DNA of 64,000 nt from an uncultured Candidatus Saccharibacteria bacterium (GTDB taxonomy: Bacteria; Patescibacteriota; Minisyncoccia; Phycocordibacterales; DATDWN01): contig CAYMJQ010000003.1 in assembly GCA_964391455.1 (NCBI GenBank), positions 12,435-76,434 of the forward strand, given 5' to 3'. The notes beneath the pieces were generated by a model. The model saw nothing but the letters and a program-made list of their open reading frames with translations, was not told the DNA's origin and did no database searches. Within the stretch, counting starts at the first letter, position 1, and every line of letters starts with the position of its first letter. The translations under genes were made by a program, and so were the position numbers. Positions 1 through 21,341 of this stretch are shown here, piece by piece.

Positions 1-439
1 TATATGTAATCTCTCCGCTTGGCGCAGTAAAAGTGAATTTTTCACCCTTTTTCTTACCTAAAATTGCTTGTCCAAAAGGAGATTTCATTGAAATCTTGTT
101 TGCTGAAACATCTGCCTCTTCTGAACCAACAATATTATAAATGAATTCTTTACCATCTTTTTCTACAGTAACTTTTGAACCGACAGCTACAGCGTCCCCA
201 GTATTTGACGAAACGATTTGAGCATTTTTCAAAAGATCTTCTAACCTAGAAATTCTGTCTTCAATTGTAGCTTGGGCATCTCTGGCCTCGTGATACTCAG
301 CATTTTCTGACAAATCACCTAAAGATTTTGCGTACTCTAATGATTCAGCTATTTCTTTTCTTTTTTTACCCTTTAATTCAGCTAATTCTTTAGTAAATTC
401 ATCAAATTTCTCCTTTGTTAGGTATTCCTTGTCCTTCAT
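1..439 (-). CDS. greA: transcription elongation factor GreA, gene continues beyond window start
   Basis: Own translation of minus strand from ATG at 439: MKDKEYLTKEKFDEFTKELAELKGKKRKEIAESLEYAKSLGDLSENAEYHEARDAQATIEDRI..., which matches the GreA/GreB N-terminal coiled-coil and C-terminal domain. The ORF is open at the window edge. Confidence 0.8.
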   Translation of the reverse strand, partial: MKDKEYLTKEKFDEFTKELAELKGKKRKEIAESLEYAKSLGDLSENAEYHEARDAQATIEDRISRLEDLLKNAQIVSSNTGDAVAVGSKVTVEKDGKEFIYNIVGSEEADVSANKISMKSPFGQAILGKKKGEKFTFTAPSGEITY

Positions 440-15616: not shown

Positions 15617-15664
15617 ATAATTTAATCCAAGGGTAATATTGGGTTGTAATATATATACAGAAAC

Positions 15665-15700
15665 CGCCCGAAAGCTCGACGGCTCTGCGGGCGGCTTTTA
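15665..15700 (-). terminator. GC-rich hairpin terminator at left edge of tRNA-Asn island
   Basis: ccgcccg / cgggcgg form a 7-bp stem with a 16-nt loop, immediately after the stop of the 15714-16109 ORF. Confidence 0.5.
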
Positions 15701-15713
15701 CTGGTTACCTCTT

Positions 15714-16109
15714 TCAGTCCATTTCCAAATAGTCTGGTAGTGACCTACTATAGATTTCATAAGTAAGTTTAGTACCATCGCCATTGAGGACAATAAAGCA
15801 GACCCAATCGTAGTCCATCTTGCCTATTTCTTCAGCGAGATCACTGAGTCCACCATTACCCCAGAATTCAGGAACTCTAGTGCTTTCCTTCGTCTCTTCA
15901 GTCCACAAACAGAGACGTCTGTCTGTGTTTGTTGCAGTGTCAATGATATATCCCCCATTGAATTCAGTTGCGATAAGACGTCTCGCAAAAGAATGTTCAA
16001 GTTTTGGCTCAAATACAACAATAGCTTTTGCTTTTTGCGAAGAACTTGTTACTCCTGGGTCATCTACAAGTTTTTCTATGTTTACTGAACCAGTTTCAAT
16101 CCAGTACAT
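15714..16109 (-). CDS. hypothetical 131-aa protein (island gene F); weak resemblance to SUKH/Smi1-type immunity-like proteins
   Basis: Starts MYWIETGS... with GGAAGGAG 5 nt upstream. A TTGACA-17-TAATTT promoter lies at 16131-16159. The gene is GC-rich and carries EFWGNGG and LPDYLEM motifs. Confidence 0.5.
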   Translation of the reverse strand: MYWIETGSVNIEKLVDDPGVTSSSQKAKAIVVFEPKLEHSFARRLIATEFNGGYIIDTATNTDRRLCLWTEETKESTRVPEFWGNGGLSDLAEEIGKMDYDWVCFIVLNGDGTKLTYEIYSRSLPDYLEMD

Positions 16110-16130
16110 TTTAACTCCTTCCTGATGCAA

Positions 16131-16159
16131 AAATTAACATTAGAATTAATGTGTGTCAA
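16131..16159 (-). promoter_or_regulatory. promoter of island gene F (TTGACA-17-TAATTT), paralogous to the gene E promoter
   Basis: The minus-strand read is ATTGACACACATTAATTCTAATGTTAATTTTTG. It aligns with ATTGACACGCATTTATTTGTGTGTTAATTTTG upstream of gene E. Confidence 0.5.
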
Positions 16160-16172
16160 TTCACAACGCTCA

Positions 16173-16199
16173 TTGGACAAGTTCAGAACTCTGAATTGG
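16173..16199. repeat. 27-bp palindromic element copy 2 (ttggacaagttcagaactctgaattgg)
   Basis: Inverted-repeat arms TTCAGA/TCTGAA flanked by CCAA/TTGG, lying 13 nt upstream of the gene F -35. A near-identical copy is at 16751-16777. Confidence 0.6.
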
Positions 16200-16249
16200 A
16201 GAAAAACTGAGATAGAGTTTGAAATGATAATGTTTGGTTTTGTGTATAA

Positions 16250-16276
16250 CGAAAGCCGCTCTACAAGAGAGCGGCC
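16250..16276 (-). terminator. terminator after island gene E
   Basis: Minus-strand GGCCGCTCTCTTGTAGAGCGGC + TTTCGTT. Confidence 0.5.
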
Positions 16277-16539
16277 AAGATGTGGGCCTTTTTGTCATCA
16301 AATTCATTGAGTGGAACAATTGAGATTGTGTTCAGCCCAATACGAAGTTCAGAGAAGTCAGTAACCTGTTGTCCGATTTTGTGTATCGGAATTCCAGCTG
16401 TTACGAGTTTCTGTACAACGGCCTGTTGAGCTTCTTTTCTGTTCTCTGATTCGACCAATCCAAGCGAGTATGAGCCTCGTCCTGGGTTTTCAATGCTCAC
16501 AATGAAATGCATTTTTACCTCCAAAAACAAAATTAACAC
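16261..16539 (-). CDS. hypothetical 92-aa protein (island gene E)
   Basis: GGAGG lies 7 nt before the ATG. A TTGACA promoter at 16530-16558 sits 5 nt from att repeat A1. The gene is GC-rich. Confidence 0.5.
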   Translation of the reverse strand: MLILFLEVKMHFIVSIENPGRGSYSLGLVESENRKEAQQAVVQKLVTAGIPIHKIGQQVTDFSELRIGLNTISIVPLNEFDDKKAHILAALL

Positions 16540-16563
16540 ACAAATAAATGCGTGTCAATAAAG

Positions 16564-16579
16564 TGCTCCGGCGGTAGGG
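16564..16579. repeat. direct repeat A1: partial copy of tRNA-Asn 3' end (tgctccggcggtaggg)
   Basis: A 16/16 match to plus-strand 17492-17507 (the tRNA acceptor/T-arm 3' portion). Confidence 0.7.
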
Positions 16580-16712
16580 TGATCTTTTTTAATTTTAAAT
16601 TTTCGTCAAAATTTAAAATTAAAAACGCAGTTTGTCGACAAGCCGTACTCGGCTCGTAAACCGACAAACTGTTCGATCCCTACACGAAAACTTTCAGTTT
16701 TCTCGCCGATAG

Positions 16713-16740
16713 TAAAAAAGACCCTTACGGGTCTTTCTTT
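16713..16740. terminator. bidirectional hairpin terminator (aaaaaagaccc ttac gggtctttcttt)
   Basis: Stem agaccc/gggtct with an A-run on the 5' side and a T-run on the 3' side. Confidence 0.5.
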
Positions 16741-16750
16741 GCTCCGCAAG

Positions 16751-16777
16751 TTGGACGCATTCAGAACTCTGAATTGG
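16751..16777. repeat. 27-bp palindromic element copy 1 (ttggacgcattcagaactctgaattgg)
   Basis: Differs from copy 2 only at 3 central-left positions. Confidence 0.6.
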
Positions 16778-16914
16778 GTTGCTATTAAAAGAGAATTAGA
16801 ACTTTCGGGGATTTTAGGTATATCTTATTTTCAAACTGCTTCAGAACTAGTGTAAAAACAGAATCGCCCAACGAGGTCGGGCGACCTGTTGAGCGATGAT
16901 AGAGAAACGGGAAG

Positions 16915-17265
16915 TTACTTCTTTGCACGGGACGTTCTGGAACGAAAGGACAGTTCTTCCTTGCTGAACTGGATGTGATGGGTGTTTTCAATGATAGTCC
17001 TGCGTTTCGCACCCTTGTCGACATTCCACTGTCGCAATCCTTTGCGACGCCCAACACGAAGCCCTTTGGTTTTCTCGTCGCAATATTTCATCACACACTT
17101 CGCGACGTGTTTTGGAAGTGTGTGCAAACAACTTCCATCACAAGGACCGATGACAATGTGCTCATCTGCCATTCGGTTTACGTAGTTGTAGTGGGAAACG
17201 TGGATTTCACCATTGATACAGAACTGGTCTCCCCATTCTTCACGACTAATCAGAGTTGCTTTCAC
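16915..17265 (-). CDS. hypothetical 116-aa Cys/His-rich protein (island gene G), a possible zinc-finger or HNH-like nuclease fold
   Basis: GTG start with GGGAGG 5 nt upstream. A TTGACT-17-TATTAT promoter at 17294-17322 lies 2 nt from att repeat A2. The protein carries C16, HVSHYN, GPCDGSCLH, KHVAKC, KYC and NTHHI clusters and a basic C-terminal tail. Confidence 0.5.
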   Translation of the reverse strand: MKATLISREEWGDQFCINGEIHVSHYNYVNRMADEHIVIGPCDGSCLHTLPKHVAKCVMKYCDEKTKGLRVGRRKGLRQWNVDKGAKRRTIIENTHHIQFSKEELSFRSRTSRAKK

Positions 17266-17293
17266 TAAACACCTCCCTTCAAATCTAAATTAG

Positions 17294-17322
17294 ATAATAA
17301 CACGACTTATAAAATAAGTCAA
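17294..17322 (-). promoter_or_regulatory. promoter of island gene G (TTGACT-17-TATTAT)
   Basis: The minus-strand read is TTGACTtattttataagtcgtgtTATTAT. Confidence 0.5.
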
Positions 17323-17324
17323 AC

Positions 17325-17347
17325 TTGCTCCGGCGGTAGGGATCGAA
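17325..17347. repeat. direct repeat A2: 23-nt copy of tRNA-Asn 3' end (ttgctccggcggtagggatcgaa)
   Basis: A 23/23 match to 17491-17513. Confidence 0.75.
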
Positions 17348-17493
17348 ACTTACAGTTTCAGTACACCTGTTCTGTTTTTTATTTCTAATTGAATAAAAAA
17401 CTATCACAGGTCTTCGATCCCTAACGTAAAAGTCTCCCAGACTTTTACTCCGTCCTTCGCAAATGAAAAATCCCCTTTCGGGGTTTTCATTTG

Positions 17494-17565
17494 CTCCGGC
17501 GGTAGGGATCGAACCTACGACCAATCGATTAACAGTCGATTGCTCTACCACTGAGCTACACCGGA
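17494..17565 (-). tRNA. tRNA-Asn (anticodon GTT)
   Basis: The minus-strand read is TCCGGTGTAGCTCAGTGGTAGAGCAATCGACTGTTAATCGATTGGTCGTAGGTTCGATCCCTACCGCCGGAG. It has a 7-bp acceptor stem, a D-arm AGCTCAGTGGTAGAGC, an anticodon loop CUGUUAA and a T-arm GTAGGTTCGATCCCTAC. CCA is not encoded. Confidence 0.85.
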
Positions 17566-17745
17566 ATGTTTAAGCTCAGGACCACTGGCCACAAGTTAAA
17601 ATCTGCTGATTTTACTCGCGACCCCTCCTCGCCCCCGTCTCGGGCTCCGGCCTTGCGAAGTAAAAACATCACTTCTCACTACACCGGAATAAATAGATAA
17701 TACCAAAAATATAGAGGAAAGCAACAATTTTATACTTACTCTGTA

Positions 17746-20657: not shown

Positions 20658-21341
20658 ATGCCACAAAAAACTGAGCTTCACCCAGAAGAAGTAGCAAAGT
20701 TGTTTGGTGTACACAAAAGAACCATTTTCAGATGGATAAAAAGGAAACATCTGAAAAATGTAAATGGAAAAGTTCAGATGGATGGTTTGCAAGAAAAACT
20801 ATCTCTCTGGAAAAACAGTGTGCCCAGACACGAAGCCAGAAAAAGACTGAGAGTTAGGGTATGGACCTTGAACACTTGGATCTCTCATGGCTATCTTGAA
20901 ACCGTCTCTGTGATGGGAGAAACAAGGGTGATAACAACTTCTCTGGTGAATGCTCCCCAGAAAAGAATAGGGCTGTCTCTGGACTTGAGACGATTTGTAA
21001 ATTTCAACCAATTGATTGTAATGTTGGACACTTCTTCTCCAACATTAAATAAATATGCAAACATTGAGTTTAAAGTTCAAACCTCAGGAAAACACAAAGT
21101 TGTTACAGAAGAAGAGGCTCACCGTTTAATTGAGCTAAAAAGGAGTTCCTTTTCAACAAAAGAAACCTGCCAGATTCTGGATGTAAACAAAAAACAACTC
21201 AAACAAATGGTAAAAAGTAAGGAACTGGAATTGTTAGTACTTCTTGGAAGAGTAAGGGTAACCAAAAAATCAGTCAGATCTATGGTTACAAAAATTGCCA
21301 GTAGAAAAAAACTGCAAGAGATTGGTCTTGCAAAGACTTGA
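20658..21341 (+). CDS. DNA-binding protein with three tandem excisionase/MerR-like HTH (HTH_17-type) repeats
   Basis: The three repeats are EVAKLFGVHKRTIFRWIKRKHL, VWTLNTWISHGYLETV and ETCQILDVNKKQLKQMVKSKELE. AAGGGG lies before the ATG, and a terminator follows at 21351-21381. Confidence 0.55.
   Translation: MPQKTELHPEEVAKLFGVHKRTIFRWIKRKHLKNVNGKVQMDGLQEKLSLWKNSVPRHEARKRLRVRVWTLNTWISHGYLETVSVMGETRVITTSLVNAPQKRIGLSLDLRRFVNFNQLIVMLDTSSPTLNKYANIEFKVQTSGKHKVVTEEEAHRLIELKRSSFSTKETCQILDVNKKQLKQMVKSKELELLVLLGRVRVTKKSVRSMVTKIASRKKLQEIGLAKT

Follow-up and report, generated by a model that had tools for sequence, protein, structure and literature searches.

The 27-mer that occurs twice in a genomic island of an uncultured Candidatus Saccharibacteria bacterium forms the conserved core of a junction element that separates single-gene cassettes, and is not a local palindromic operator. 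The island lies beside a gene for tRNA-Asn within the window, i.e., the whole 64,000-nucleotide stretch of DNA that was analysed. We give a little less than an even chance to the view that the element serves as an att-like junction in a cassette array anchored at tRNA-Asn, with a recombinase acting in trans. A role as a recombinase site had also been suggested by a sequence-only reading of this DNA; it is plausible, although for a different motif, namely direct TTCAGAAC repeats together with GGGAGC.

Two 27-mers in an island at tRNA-Asn

As described in the sequence-only reading, the two copies (16173–16199 and 16751–16777) are identical at 24 of 27 positions, with 3 mismatches. The window holds no further copy; none appeared in 100 shuffles and 0 are expected by chance. 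All genes and promoters discussed here lie on the minus strand. Copy 1 stops 13 nt short of the –35 hexamer of gene F (tgtcaa, 16154–16159), and copy 2 lies 137 nt past the stop codon of gene G (16915), directly before a hairpin with a T-run (16714–16740), much as first described. The palindrome was partly misread. Its inner part, TTCAGA-AC-TCTGAA, is present in both copies, but the outer CCAA..TTGG arms are not, as the left flank is TTGGAC, which is direct instead of inverted. The self-complementary part is confined to the inner arms of 6 bp (7 bp in copy 2), and the whole 27-mer is no palindrome. The features of the island, ordered from the tRNA outwards, are as follows.

17642..17690, minus strand: remnants of tRNA-Asn ends upstream of the intact gene (repeat D16 and sequence)
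17493..17565, minus strand: tRNA-Asn(GTT), the array anchor (ARAGORN; Rfam 72.8 bits)
17327..17492, minus strand: module A, a paralog of module B (repeat families D1, D2, D6, I6 and I7; alignment)
17294..17322, minus strand: promoter-like site of gene G (TTGACT-17-TATTAT, with TG)
16915..17265, minus strand: cargo gene G, 116 aa, orphan
16862..16886, minus strand: terminator of gene G
16740..16860, minus strand: junction block copy 2, intact (nhmmer score 83)
16563..16739, minus strand: module B, tRNA-end-derived and structured (repeats I2, I5 and I8; folding)
16528..16560, minus strand: promoter-leader of gene E (ATTGACACGCATTTATTTGTGTGTTAATTTTG), a paralog of the gene F promoter (repeat D3)
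16261..16512, minus strand: cargo gene E, 83 aa
16254..16276, minus strand: terminator of gene E
16173..16245, minus strand: junction block copy 1, degenerate (nhmmer score 50)
16130..16162, minus strand: promoter-leader of gene F (ATTGACACACATTAATTCTAATGTTAATTTTTG; repeat D3)
15714..16109, minus strand: cargo gene F, 131 aa, followed by a terminator hairpin at about 15660–15700

The window contains two full units (genes G and E) and a third cassette (gene F) that starts directly after the degenerate block. Each of the genes G, E, and F comes with a –35/–10 promoter and a terminator of its own. The cassette or modular origin proposed earlier for the island is borne out by this arrangement of tRNA-Asn-linked promoter-gene-terminator cassettes with repeated junction modules between them. 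In the intact block copy 2, a distal TTCAGAAC lies at 16840–16847, the 27-mer's own TTCAGAAC at 16760–16767, and CGGAGCA at 16740–16746; on the plus strand, a short ORF (16751–16855) reads (M)DAFRTLNWVAIKRELELSGILGISYFQTASELV*. In block copy 1 the 27-mer is intact, the remainder has diverged and lacks GGAGCA, and the gene F promoter follows directly.

The last 22 nt of tRNA-Asn (TTCGATCCCTACCGCCGGAGCA) recur inside the island as repeat family D1. These direct repeats are found at 17493–17516 (in the tRNA), 17325–17350, and 16563–16588 (a degenerate copy in module B), and the gene E and gene F cassettes are positioned past the last of them. The remnant upstream of the intact tRNA gene consists of the 5' 12-mer ATTCCGGTGTAG and a GGCCGGAGCC piece. 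Module A begins with the terminator hairpin of the tRNA and another hairpin, and further contains an inverted T-arm piece (17413–17426), a long AT hairpin, and the tRNA 3' end in a second copy (17327–17348). Module B has a terminator hairpin (16714–16738), a small hairpin, an inverted T-arm piece (16671–16683), two long hairpins (one at 16586–16625), and a degenerate tRNA 3' end (16563–16584). Its fold energy is –75.8 kcal/mol (z = –8.5), and when it is aligned with the corresponding modules of loci L004 and L016, 23 of 68 predicted pairs carry compensatory double changes. The L016 module is a mosaic, the first half resembling module A of the window and the second half module B.

The promoter-leaders of genes E and F are paralogous, as the earlier reading held. 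Their local alignment score is 21, compared with 8.7 ± 1.65 (maximum 17) for dinucleotide shuffles, none of 2000 shuffles reaching the observed score, and the 17-nt spacers match at 11 of 17 positions (P = 4e-4). The gene G promoter aligns with these leaders at a background score of 10–11. The cargo itself is largely orphan. No Pfam, PHROG, or PADLOC match was obtained for genes E, F, and G, and gene G has zero homologs among 5.8 billion proteins. Gene E has two homologs (81% and 72% identity). Gene F has one (56% identity), which is found in another context with its own promoter and terminator and without a 27-mer. In the L004 genome, the gene E cassette is found together with ~360 nt of non-coding leader that includes the 27-mer, at ~80% identity and with no adjoining tRNA. 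All three genes are absent from the other arrays described below.

The junction block and its link to tRNA-Asn

Conservation peaks at the 27-mer, the core of a block of ~115 nt that sits downstream of a different cargo gene almost everywhere. On the tRNA strand, the block reads AGTTCTGAAG, followed by ~70 nt and then CCAATTNAGAGTTCTGAANNNGTCCA, and it ends in GGGAGC(C)A, the final bases of tRNA-Asn. On the same strand, a unit runs from GGGAGC(C)A through hairpins or a promoter to one cargo gene, its terminator, and the next block. GGGAGC(C)A is followed either by a terminator hairpin with tRNA-end-derived hairpins or, in many loci, directly by a TTGACA-type promoter. A terminator-like hairpin after the core, ~10 nt from the start of the short ORF, is present in 93 of 243 junctions, including that of window copy 2.

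An exact-pattern scan found the core in 61 genomes or loci among species genomes, nearly all of the CPR (Patescibacteria), and in at least 120 metagenomic contigs or loci, again nearly all Patescibacteria. The same pattern gave zero matches in viral contigs, where one 18-mer match within a coding region is ascribed to chance; a phage or viral origin was rejected. With nhmmer and relaxed matching, 254 cores were recovered in 178 loci. Among these loci, 57 have 2–4 cores, with mixed orientation in none, and the cores are spaced from ~0.4 kb upward, mostly 0.4–1.4 kb apart. Block identity across CPR classes is about 80–90%; other subfamilies have in common only GCTCCC-N5-TGGAC-N3-TTCAGAACT. The earlier reading had allowed for a ubiquitous genome-wide repeat unrelated to the island. 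This does not hold within the window, with its 2 copies, yet the 27-mer is common across CPR classes and far from island-specific. The block lies within 200 nt of a contig end in 47 of 148 cases, a behaviour typical of repeats in assemblies; CPR assemblies often break at these places because the junction block is present.

The chromosomal neighbours of the blocks recur (HPF in 14 loci, def and fmt repeatedly), and the cargo adjoining the block falls into 63 clusters over 66 sites. The cargo is of a typical accessory kind: YafQ, ParE, Fic, RhuM, glyoxalase, and VanY are among the types, and the majority belongs to no family.

Arrays consist of 2–4 co-oriented copies 0.5–4 kb downstream of tRNA-Asn. 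This tRNA accounts for 14 of 21 tRNAs in genome loci and 7 of 11 in metagenome loci, always on the same strand as the block and always upstream of it. GGGAGC is highly conserved despite its absence from the pattern used in the genome scan. In 5 tRNA/junction pairs (4 loci), the 90 nt after the junction GGAGC are paralogous to the 90 nt after the tRNA end (z = 8–29); in the window, the resemblance between post-junction and post-tRNA sequence is seen for module A (z = 8.6). In locus L010, the last junction of the array lacks this paralogy, as expected of a terminal attR. In independent lineages, these duplications have their boundaries at the tRNA 3' end. At most junctions the match to the tRNA extends over 5–7 nt only, and the block as a degenerate copy of tRNA-Asn was rejected (z = –0.5 to –1.7, either strand).

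Readings of the junction block

In the att-like reading, the block together with GGGAGC would form a recombination site, the direct TTCAGAAC repeats being putative protein-binding sites and the crossover taking place at the GGGAGC common to block and tRNA. Cassettes devoid of an integrase would be inserted serially beside tRNA-Asn by a recombinase encoded elsewhere, and the similarity of the gene E and F promoters may be a by-product of modular cassette ancestry. This reading draws on the distribution of the block, its link to tRNA-Asn, the varied cargo beside it, its frequency at contig ends, and the recurrence of the gene E cassette in L004. The sequence of the block points to constraint at the DNA level. 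TTC stands in 78% of copies, compared with a background of 27%, and AGA in 100%, compared with 36%. In 26 of 27 copies the distal motif reads CTTCAGAAC, in another reading frame, and its spacing is fixed, being exactly 69 nt upstream in 31 of 77 sites; the TTCAGAAC of the 27-mer recurs ~79 nt away, also in a different frame. The frozen codon choice and the recurrence of TTCAGAAC in another frame imply a DNA-level motif. As a pair, the TTCAGAAC repeats are direct and none is inverted. A third, inverted TTCAGAAC beyond the junction occurs in only 4 of 77 sites and hence is not general. Two other kinds of site were considered and rejected. A dif/Xer-like 28-bp site was dismissed, since its arms, judged by eye, are no inverted repeats. 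A genome-wide motif of the uptake-sequence type was dismissed as well: GTTCTGAA is mildly over-represented outside blocks, its 167 occurrences in 479 kb being mostly inside them.

The candidate enzyme was sought around the arrays. In a crude count of Pfam families on 195 flanking ORFs (about ±4 kb per site), no recombinase was enriched and no integrase was among the most-matched families. A similarly crude search of 1251 ORFs over the same distance gave no H.LRH or Y.R.S..Q motif, and the ten integrase-sized ORFs of the window are housekeeping genes. Among the loci there was no excised circle, no empty site, and no cassette present in identical form at two positions of an array. These negative results count against the att-like reading, as do the short matches to the tRNA at most junctions and the location of the gene E and F cassettes beyond the last 22-nt repeat, which is not predicted by a simple serial-integration model.

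A broader proposal, which we consider possible but somewhat unlikely, is that Patescibacteria capture gene cassettes by a so far undescribed system whose function parallels that of integrons. Cassettes of one gene each, expressed from their own signals, would enter in series at the tRNA-Asn 3' end by way of a core site of ~30 bp (AGTTCTGAA-N3-GTCCA-N5-GGGAGC), with help from the folded modules derived from the tRNA end. Another part of the genome, or a helper element, would supply the recombinase, and the short conserved ORF at each junction may be a second, overlapping function.

That ORF is the basis of another explanation, to which we assign a low probability, in which the block is a small protein gene. 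Each cassette would carry a micro-protein of ~33–37 aa, the 27-mer encoding its start and the conserved residues (M)DxFRTLNW; the gene would be convergent with the cargo gene and end at a shared bidirectional terminator. One frame among six is open, with a modal length of 31–34 codons counted from the D residue, and in 74 of 85 copies D is preceded by a GTG, TTG, or ATG codon. Within the 27-mer, variation is limited to one whole codon, in which the 3 mismatched bases of the window copies fall, and to a Leu wobble. Diverged copies show synonymous changes (TTC->TTT, ACT->ACC, AAT->AAC). Stop codons in the block number 30, fewer than the 48 ± 5.7 of column shuffles, and the information content per codon position follows the order 2 > 1 > 3. 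The open frame has been kept, which a pure DNA site leaves unexplained and which speaks against the att-like reading. The 27-mer was also considered as a remnant of an integrase N-terminus; a HMMER search of 1.84 billion representative proteins returned only three tiny true homologs, all annotated, three long-protein matches were spurious repeat proteins, and the remnant was rejected. Against a protein-coding role, pN/pS is 0.72–0.78 and the lowest value is not in frame 0. There is neither a conserved Shine-Dalgarno sequence nor a promoter upstream of the ORF, and the terminator-like hairpin seen in 93 junctions would stand just ahead of its start. The codon choice is frozen against host usage, the conserved 'LQN' C-terminus is in fact the DNA motif CTTCAGAAC, subfamilies have only ~5 residues in common, and no Pfam or NCBIfam family matches. 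Many near-identical copies per array are also hard to square with such a gene.

It is similarly improbable that the blocks are passive portable homology that permits RecA-mediated cassette swapping and unequal crossing-over with no dedicated recombinase or site. CPR bacteria are thought to be naturally competent. Saccharibacteria have been shown to undergo natural transformation. The lack of a recombinase gene near any array, the mosaic module of L016, the high block identity between CPR classes, and the conserved chromosomal neighbourhood are all in line with homologous exchange. However, conservation is uneven and focused in short motifs (TTCAGAAC twice, GTCCA, and GGGAGC), the duplication boundaries of independent lineages match the tRNA 3' end, and homology alone leaves unexplained the retention of a 115-nt sequence across classes.

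The proposal of the sequence-only reading that the 27-mer is an operator, at which a dimeric regulator (island-encoded or the three-HTH host protein) co-regulates island promoters, is largely refuted by comparative data, and we regard it as very improbable. It draws on the true palindrome in both window copies and on the closeness of copy 1 to the gene F –35 hexamer. However, the position on which the last pair of the palindrome depends is a Leu wobble that varies freely (C 27, A 17, G 15, and T 8 in 67 sites), so that the pairing base C is present in 40% of sites, and in the homologous L004 copy the palindrome is broken. The palindrome is thus not a selected feature, which makes an operator for a dimeric regulator unlikely. 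The outer arms are missing, copy 2 lies between a terminator and a hairpin with no adjoining promoter, and elsewhere a hairpin often takes the place of a promoter after the core. The suggested binder, the three-HTH protein (20658–21341), has no homolog in ~180 related loci and does not co-occur with the blocks; nor do genes E, F, and G accompany the blocks of other arrays.

A structured or small RNA gene, such as a tRNA-like RNA ending in GGGAGC(C)A before a terminator, would suit the tRNA-like block end, the intrinsic terminator that often follows, and the clearly structured neighbouring module B with its compensatory pairs, but it is highly unlikely and was rejected: the block has no conserved fold (consensus –1.06 and –0.49 kcal/mol on the two strands, 56 sequences), no Rfam match even at E < 10 (in the island, the tRNA alone matches), no similarity to tRNA-Asn beyond the terminal bases, and no promoter between the cargo terminator and the block.

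Significance and comparison with known systems

CPR bacteria have tiny genomes in which few mobile elements are recognised. The junction sequence marks a fixed hot spot by tRNA-Asn that collects unrelated, self-expressed single genes, among them toxins, resistance-like enzymes, and many orphans, and it provides a searchable handle on the flexible gene pool of the CPR. Should a dedicated recombinase be involved, a major uncultivated radiation would possess an integron-like system, possibly also a tool for site-specific insertion in bacteria that are hard to engineer. Otherwise, the block remains useful as a marker of CPR variable regions. In the literature searched on Patescibacteria integrons, tRNA-Asn, and genomic islands, no description of this integron-like arrangement was found.

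The arrays resemble integron arrays and CALINs (attC clusters lacking an integrase) in having co-oriented, mostly single-gene cassettes of ~0.4–1.4 kb with a conserved repeat after each, hypervariable and mostly orphan cargo with toxin-antitoxin and resistance-like genes, and a single fixed anchoring site. Like CALINs, the tRNA-Asn array has no adjoining integrase. In contrast to integrons, tRNA-Asn arrays have no IntI gene and no attI site, and their junction repeat lacks an attC-type imperfect hairpin, its repeated motif being direct. Whereas integron cassettes are generally promoterless and driven by Pc, the cassettes here each bring a sigma-70-type promoter and a terminator. The arrays are anchored at the 3' end of tRNA-Asn, their repeat retains an ORF, and the hosts are Patescibacteria.

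Integrase-less elements accrete in tandem at the 3' ends of tRNA and other genes, as do the CIMEs of Streptococcus ICEs, and Prochlorococcus tycheposon islands reportedly include cargo-only satellites. Like these, the present arrays lie beside a tRNA gene with partial tRNA 3'-end repeats between units, and the units lack a recombinase of their own and would need one in trans. Unlike them, the units are far smaller (about one gene) and have a common conserved 115-nt end block. A complete parent element with integrase, primase, or conjugation genes was found neither in the ~180 loci nor in viral contigs, and the flanking ORFs lack the hallmark recombinase and primase/helicase genes of complete tycheposons. 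Islands of tRNA-targeting tyrosine integrases are similar in that direct repeats of the tRNA 3' end bound the inserted DNA, but here the element contains no integrase gene.

Some attachment sites act as folded single strands, such as the bottom strand of integron attC and the attP hairpin of CTX phage that is used by XerCD. The 27-mer block, unlike such sites, lies outside the module fold. Modules A and B consist of the tRNA-Asn 3' region in the form of long inverted repeats, and their pairing is preserved through compensatory changes. By analogy, the folded modules would recreate the 3'-end sequence of the tRNA gene as an intrastrand duplex.

A cassette array beside tRNA-Asn

The window is AT-rich (~30% GC) and carries housekeeping genes of CPR type, and a stretch of 37-49% GC, from ~15640 to 17700, adjoins tRNA-Asn(GTT). 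On the minus strand, the island runs from tRNA-Asn through module A, the gene G promoter, gene G, a terminator and a junction block containing 27-mer copy 2. It continues with CGGAGCA, module B, the gene E promoter, gene E and a terminator, and ends with a degenerate block containing 27-mer copy 1, the gene F promoter, gene F, a terminator and the host NUDIX gene. Repeat analysis found pieces of tRNA-Asn dispersed across the island.

Features of the island in the window
17642-17690, remnant with both tRNA-Asn ends (5' 12-mer ATTCCGGTGTAG plus GGCCGGAGCC), upstream of the intact tRNA
17493-17565, minus, tRNA-Asn(GTT)
17327-17492, minus, module A, paralog of module B
17413-17426 and 16671-16683, inverted T-arm pieces
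17325-17350, repeat of the last 22 nt of tRNA-Asn, within the island
16915-17265, minus, gene G (116 aa, GTG start, own promoter and terminator)
16751-16777, 27-mer copy 2
16714-16746, repeat of short CGGAGCA, then a terminator hairpin
16563-16750, minus, module B as folded
16563-16588, degenerate repeat of the last 22 nt of tRNA-Asn, within the island
16261-16512, minus, gene E
16173-16199, 27-mer copy 1
15714-16109, minus, gene F

The remnant at 17642-17690 suggests an older rearrangement at the tRNA. A GC-rich 75 nt comes after it. Genes E, F and G match no family in Pfam, PHROG or PADLOC. Gene E has two homologs, gene F a single one and gene G, searched against 5.8 billion proteins, none at all; its own product is absent from that collection.

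The sequence-only reading had described the 27-mers as a repeated palindromic element and the gene E and F promoter-leaders as paralogous, and this description holds in part. The two copies lie where they had been placed, agree at 24 of 27 positions, are the sole copies within the window and did not arise in 100 shuffles; the distances of 13 nt to the gene F -35 hexamer and 137 nt to the end of gene G are likewise right. The core TTCAGA-AC-TCTGAA is self-complementary; the outer CCAA..TTGG arms do not exist, the left flank being TTGGAC. The E and F leaders align locally with a score of 21 (8.7 +/- 1.65 in dinucleotide shuffles, 0 of 2000 reaching 21), their promoter spacers are identical at 11 of 17 positions (P = 4e-4), and the gene G promoter is unrelated to both. 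Each of the two promoters (16528-16560 and 16130-16162, minus) is near-palindromic, -35 ATTGACA being almost the reverse complement of -10 TGTTAAT, and one hairpin called by the terminator scan is in fact the promoter of gene E.

Alignment identifies modules A and B as paralogs. Module B folds at -75.8 kcal/mol, far below shuffles (z = -8.5), into a terminator hairpin, a closing stem, a small hairpin and a 'T-stem' that encloses two long hairpins and in which GTAGGGATC pairs with GATC..CCTAC; its 3' end is that of tRNA-Asn (the last 22 nt), and relatives follow other junctions. When it is compared with its counterparts at two other loci (L004 and L016), 23 of the 68 predicted pairs are preserved through double, compensatory changes. 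Module B may function at the RNA level, as single-stranded DNA in its folded state or as an inverted repeat in double-stranded DNA.

A conserved block separates variable cassettes across CPR

Across CPR, hypervariable cassettes that bring their own expression signals stand in co-oriented arrays, set apart from one another by a conserved junction block that is anchored at tRNA-Asn. With each species represented by one genome, CCAATTNAGAGTTCTGAANNNGTCC matched at 61 loci, nearly all in Patescibacteria (Saccharibacteria, Paceibacteria, Minisyncoccia, Taylorbacteria, Nomurabacteria and Peribacteria), and at least 120 metagenome loci match GTTCTGAANNNGTCCANNNNNGGGAGC, a pattern taken from a different part of the site. 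No match to the core pattern was found in the viral contigs scanned. A profile of the surrounding block picked up additional diverged copies and, together with relaxed matching, gave 254 cores in 178 loci. Two to four cores are carried by 57 of the 178 loci, never in mixed orientation; spacings run from ~0.4 kb upward and are mostly 0.4-1.4 kb, about one gene. About a third of the blocks are no more than 200 nt from the end of a contig, the behaviour expected of repeats, which break assemblies.

The ORF next to the block differs nearly everywhere (63 clusters at 66 sites). Typical accessory genes are found there, including YafQ, ParE, Fic, RhuM, glyoxalase and VanY, and most of these ORFs have no family. 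The conserved flanking genes, fmt, def, pyruvate kinase and HPF, agree with the neighbourhood in the window. The commonest neighbouring tRNA is tRNA-Asn (14 of 21 tRNAs at genome loci, 7 of 11 at metagenome loci), always on the same strand, upstream of the block and 0.5-4 kb away. At L004, the gene E homolog has no tRNA gene beside it and is preceded by ~360 nt of non-coding DNA that is ~80% identical to the window; this shared stretch takes in the 27-mer, its palindrome broken by a C-to-G change, and the entire module B.

GGGAGC, the terminal bases of tRNA-Asn, is highly conserved after the block, though it lies outside the genome-scan pattern. The 90 nt after the junction GGAGC are paralogous to the 90 nt after the tRNA 3' end in the window and three other loci (L010, L032, L036; z = 8-29), and after the last junction of the L010 array the following 90 nt are not paralogous to post-tRNA sequence. 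Exactly this pattern is predicted by serial site-specific insertion: attL, internal attP-like junctions and a terminal attR.

Several other elements were seen near blocks. Between tRNA-Asn and the block, L020 (1535-1842) and L010 carry a GC-rich non-coding 'cargo' of ~290 nt that hardly differs between two CPR species, is more conserved than the adjoining tRNA, has no Rfam match and folds barely better than shuffles (z = -1.3). At a distance of 1-3 kb from blocks there are group I introns that exceed the Rfam gathering score (L047 4632-4912, L066 1227-1503, L056 4118-4413). Directly after the junction core of L107, at ~150-380 (+), is a tandem array with a ~66-nt unit (cagccgaggttaggct...ggtcaaggtctcccccaattgattcaggaa...). 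At metagenome loci L118, L132 and L180, a T-arm fragment (GGTTCGAATCCTACCC) directly abuts GGCTCCCC on the strand of the short ORF, with no hairpins between them and no complete tRNA.

Constraint on the 27-mer

In plus-strand codons the 27-mer is TTG-GAC-NNN-TTC-AGA-ACT-CTN-AAT-TGG, (M)DxFRTLNW in translation, and it opens a short frame ending just ahead of the cargo gene's terminator; the three differences between the window copies fall exactly in the x codon. One rival reading makes the block a micro-protein gene. This frame alone is open, with stops scarcer than in column shuffles (30 vs 48.3 +/- 5.7), information content ordered 2 > 1 > 3 over the codon positions and synonymous changes in diverged copies. 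However, pN/pS is 0.72-0.78, no upstream Shine-Dalgarno sequence or promoter is conserved, a terminator-like hairpin often stands ~10 nt ahead of the start, and no protein family matches, with just three tiny homologs among 1.84 billion representatives. Codon choice is decisive here, being frozen at odds with host usage (TTC in 78% of copies vs 27% background, AGA in 100% vs 36%). Because 26 of 27 copies have CTTCAGAAC as the 'conserved C-terminus LQN', each block holds two copies of the 8-mer TTCAGAAC, which lie in different reading frames and a constant ~79 nt apart. Other metagenome subfamilies have in common only GCTCCC-N5-TGGAC-N3-TTCAGAACT and diverge completely beyond it. We conclude that a ~30-bp core is constrained at the DNA level and that the open frame serves a second function or is a relic.

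Another rival takes the block as passive homology for RecA-mediated exchange. Among the rivals, the comparative data weigh most strongly against the two that remain, a palindromic operator and an RNA gene. The palindrome would be completed by the Leu wobble base, which varies freely (C 27, A 17, G 15, T 8), and the block has no conserved RNA fold. Comparison with tRNA-Asn also rejected the block as a degenerate tRNA.

Possible accretion and known systems

The block together with GGGAGC may constitute an att-like site, with the TTCAGAAC repeats as putative binding sites and crossover at the end that resembles the tRNA; through this site, integrase-less cassettes would be accreted by a trans-acting recombinase. 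This att-like reading has one main weakness: none of the arrays was seen to have a recombinase gene nearby, and neither an excision product nor an empty site was found. The three-HTH protein once put forward as the binding protein is not found together with junction blocks. This protein, with repeated HTH_17 (excisionase/MerR-like) domains, is encoded at 20658-21341 (+) in a local GC bump (0.41) and has no homolog in ~180 junction-bearing loci, and is thus unlinked to the arrays.

Full-text literature searches turned up no account of arrays of this kind in Patescibacteria. In their working they most resemble integron/CALIN arrays and the way integrase-less elements accrete in tandem at tRNA genes (CIMEs, tycheposon islands). 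Unlike integron/CALIN arrays, they have no intI, attI or attC hairpin, and their cassettes bear their own promoters; unlike the tRNA-gene systems, they show no hallmark recombinase or replication genes. The arrays fail the defining tests of both, and we would tentatively entertain, as the less probable outcome, that they reflect a distinct cassette-capture system.
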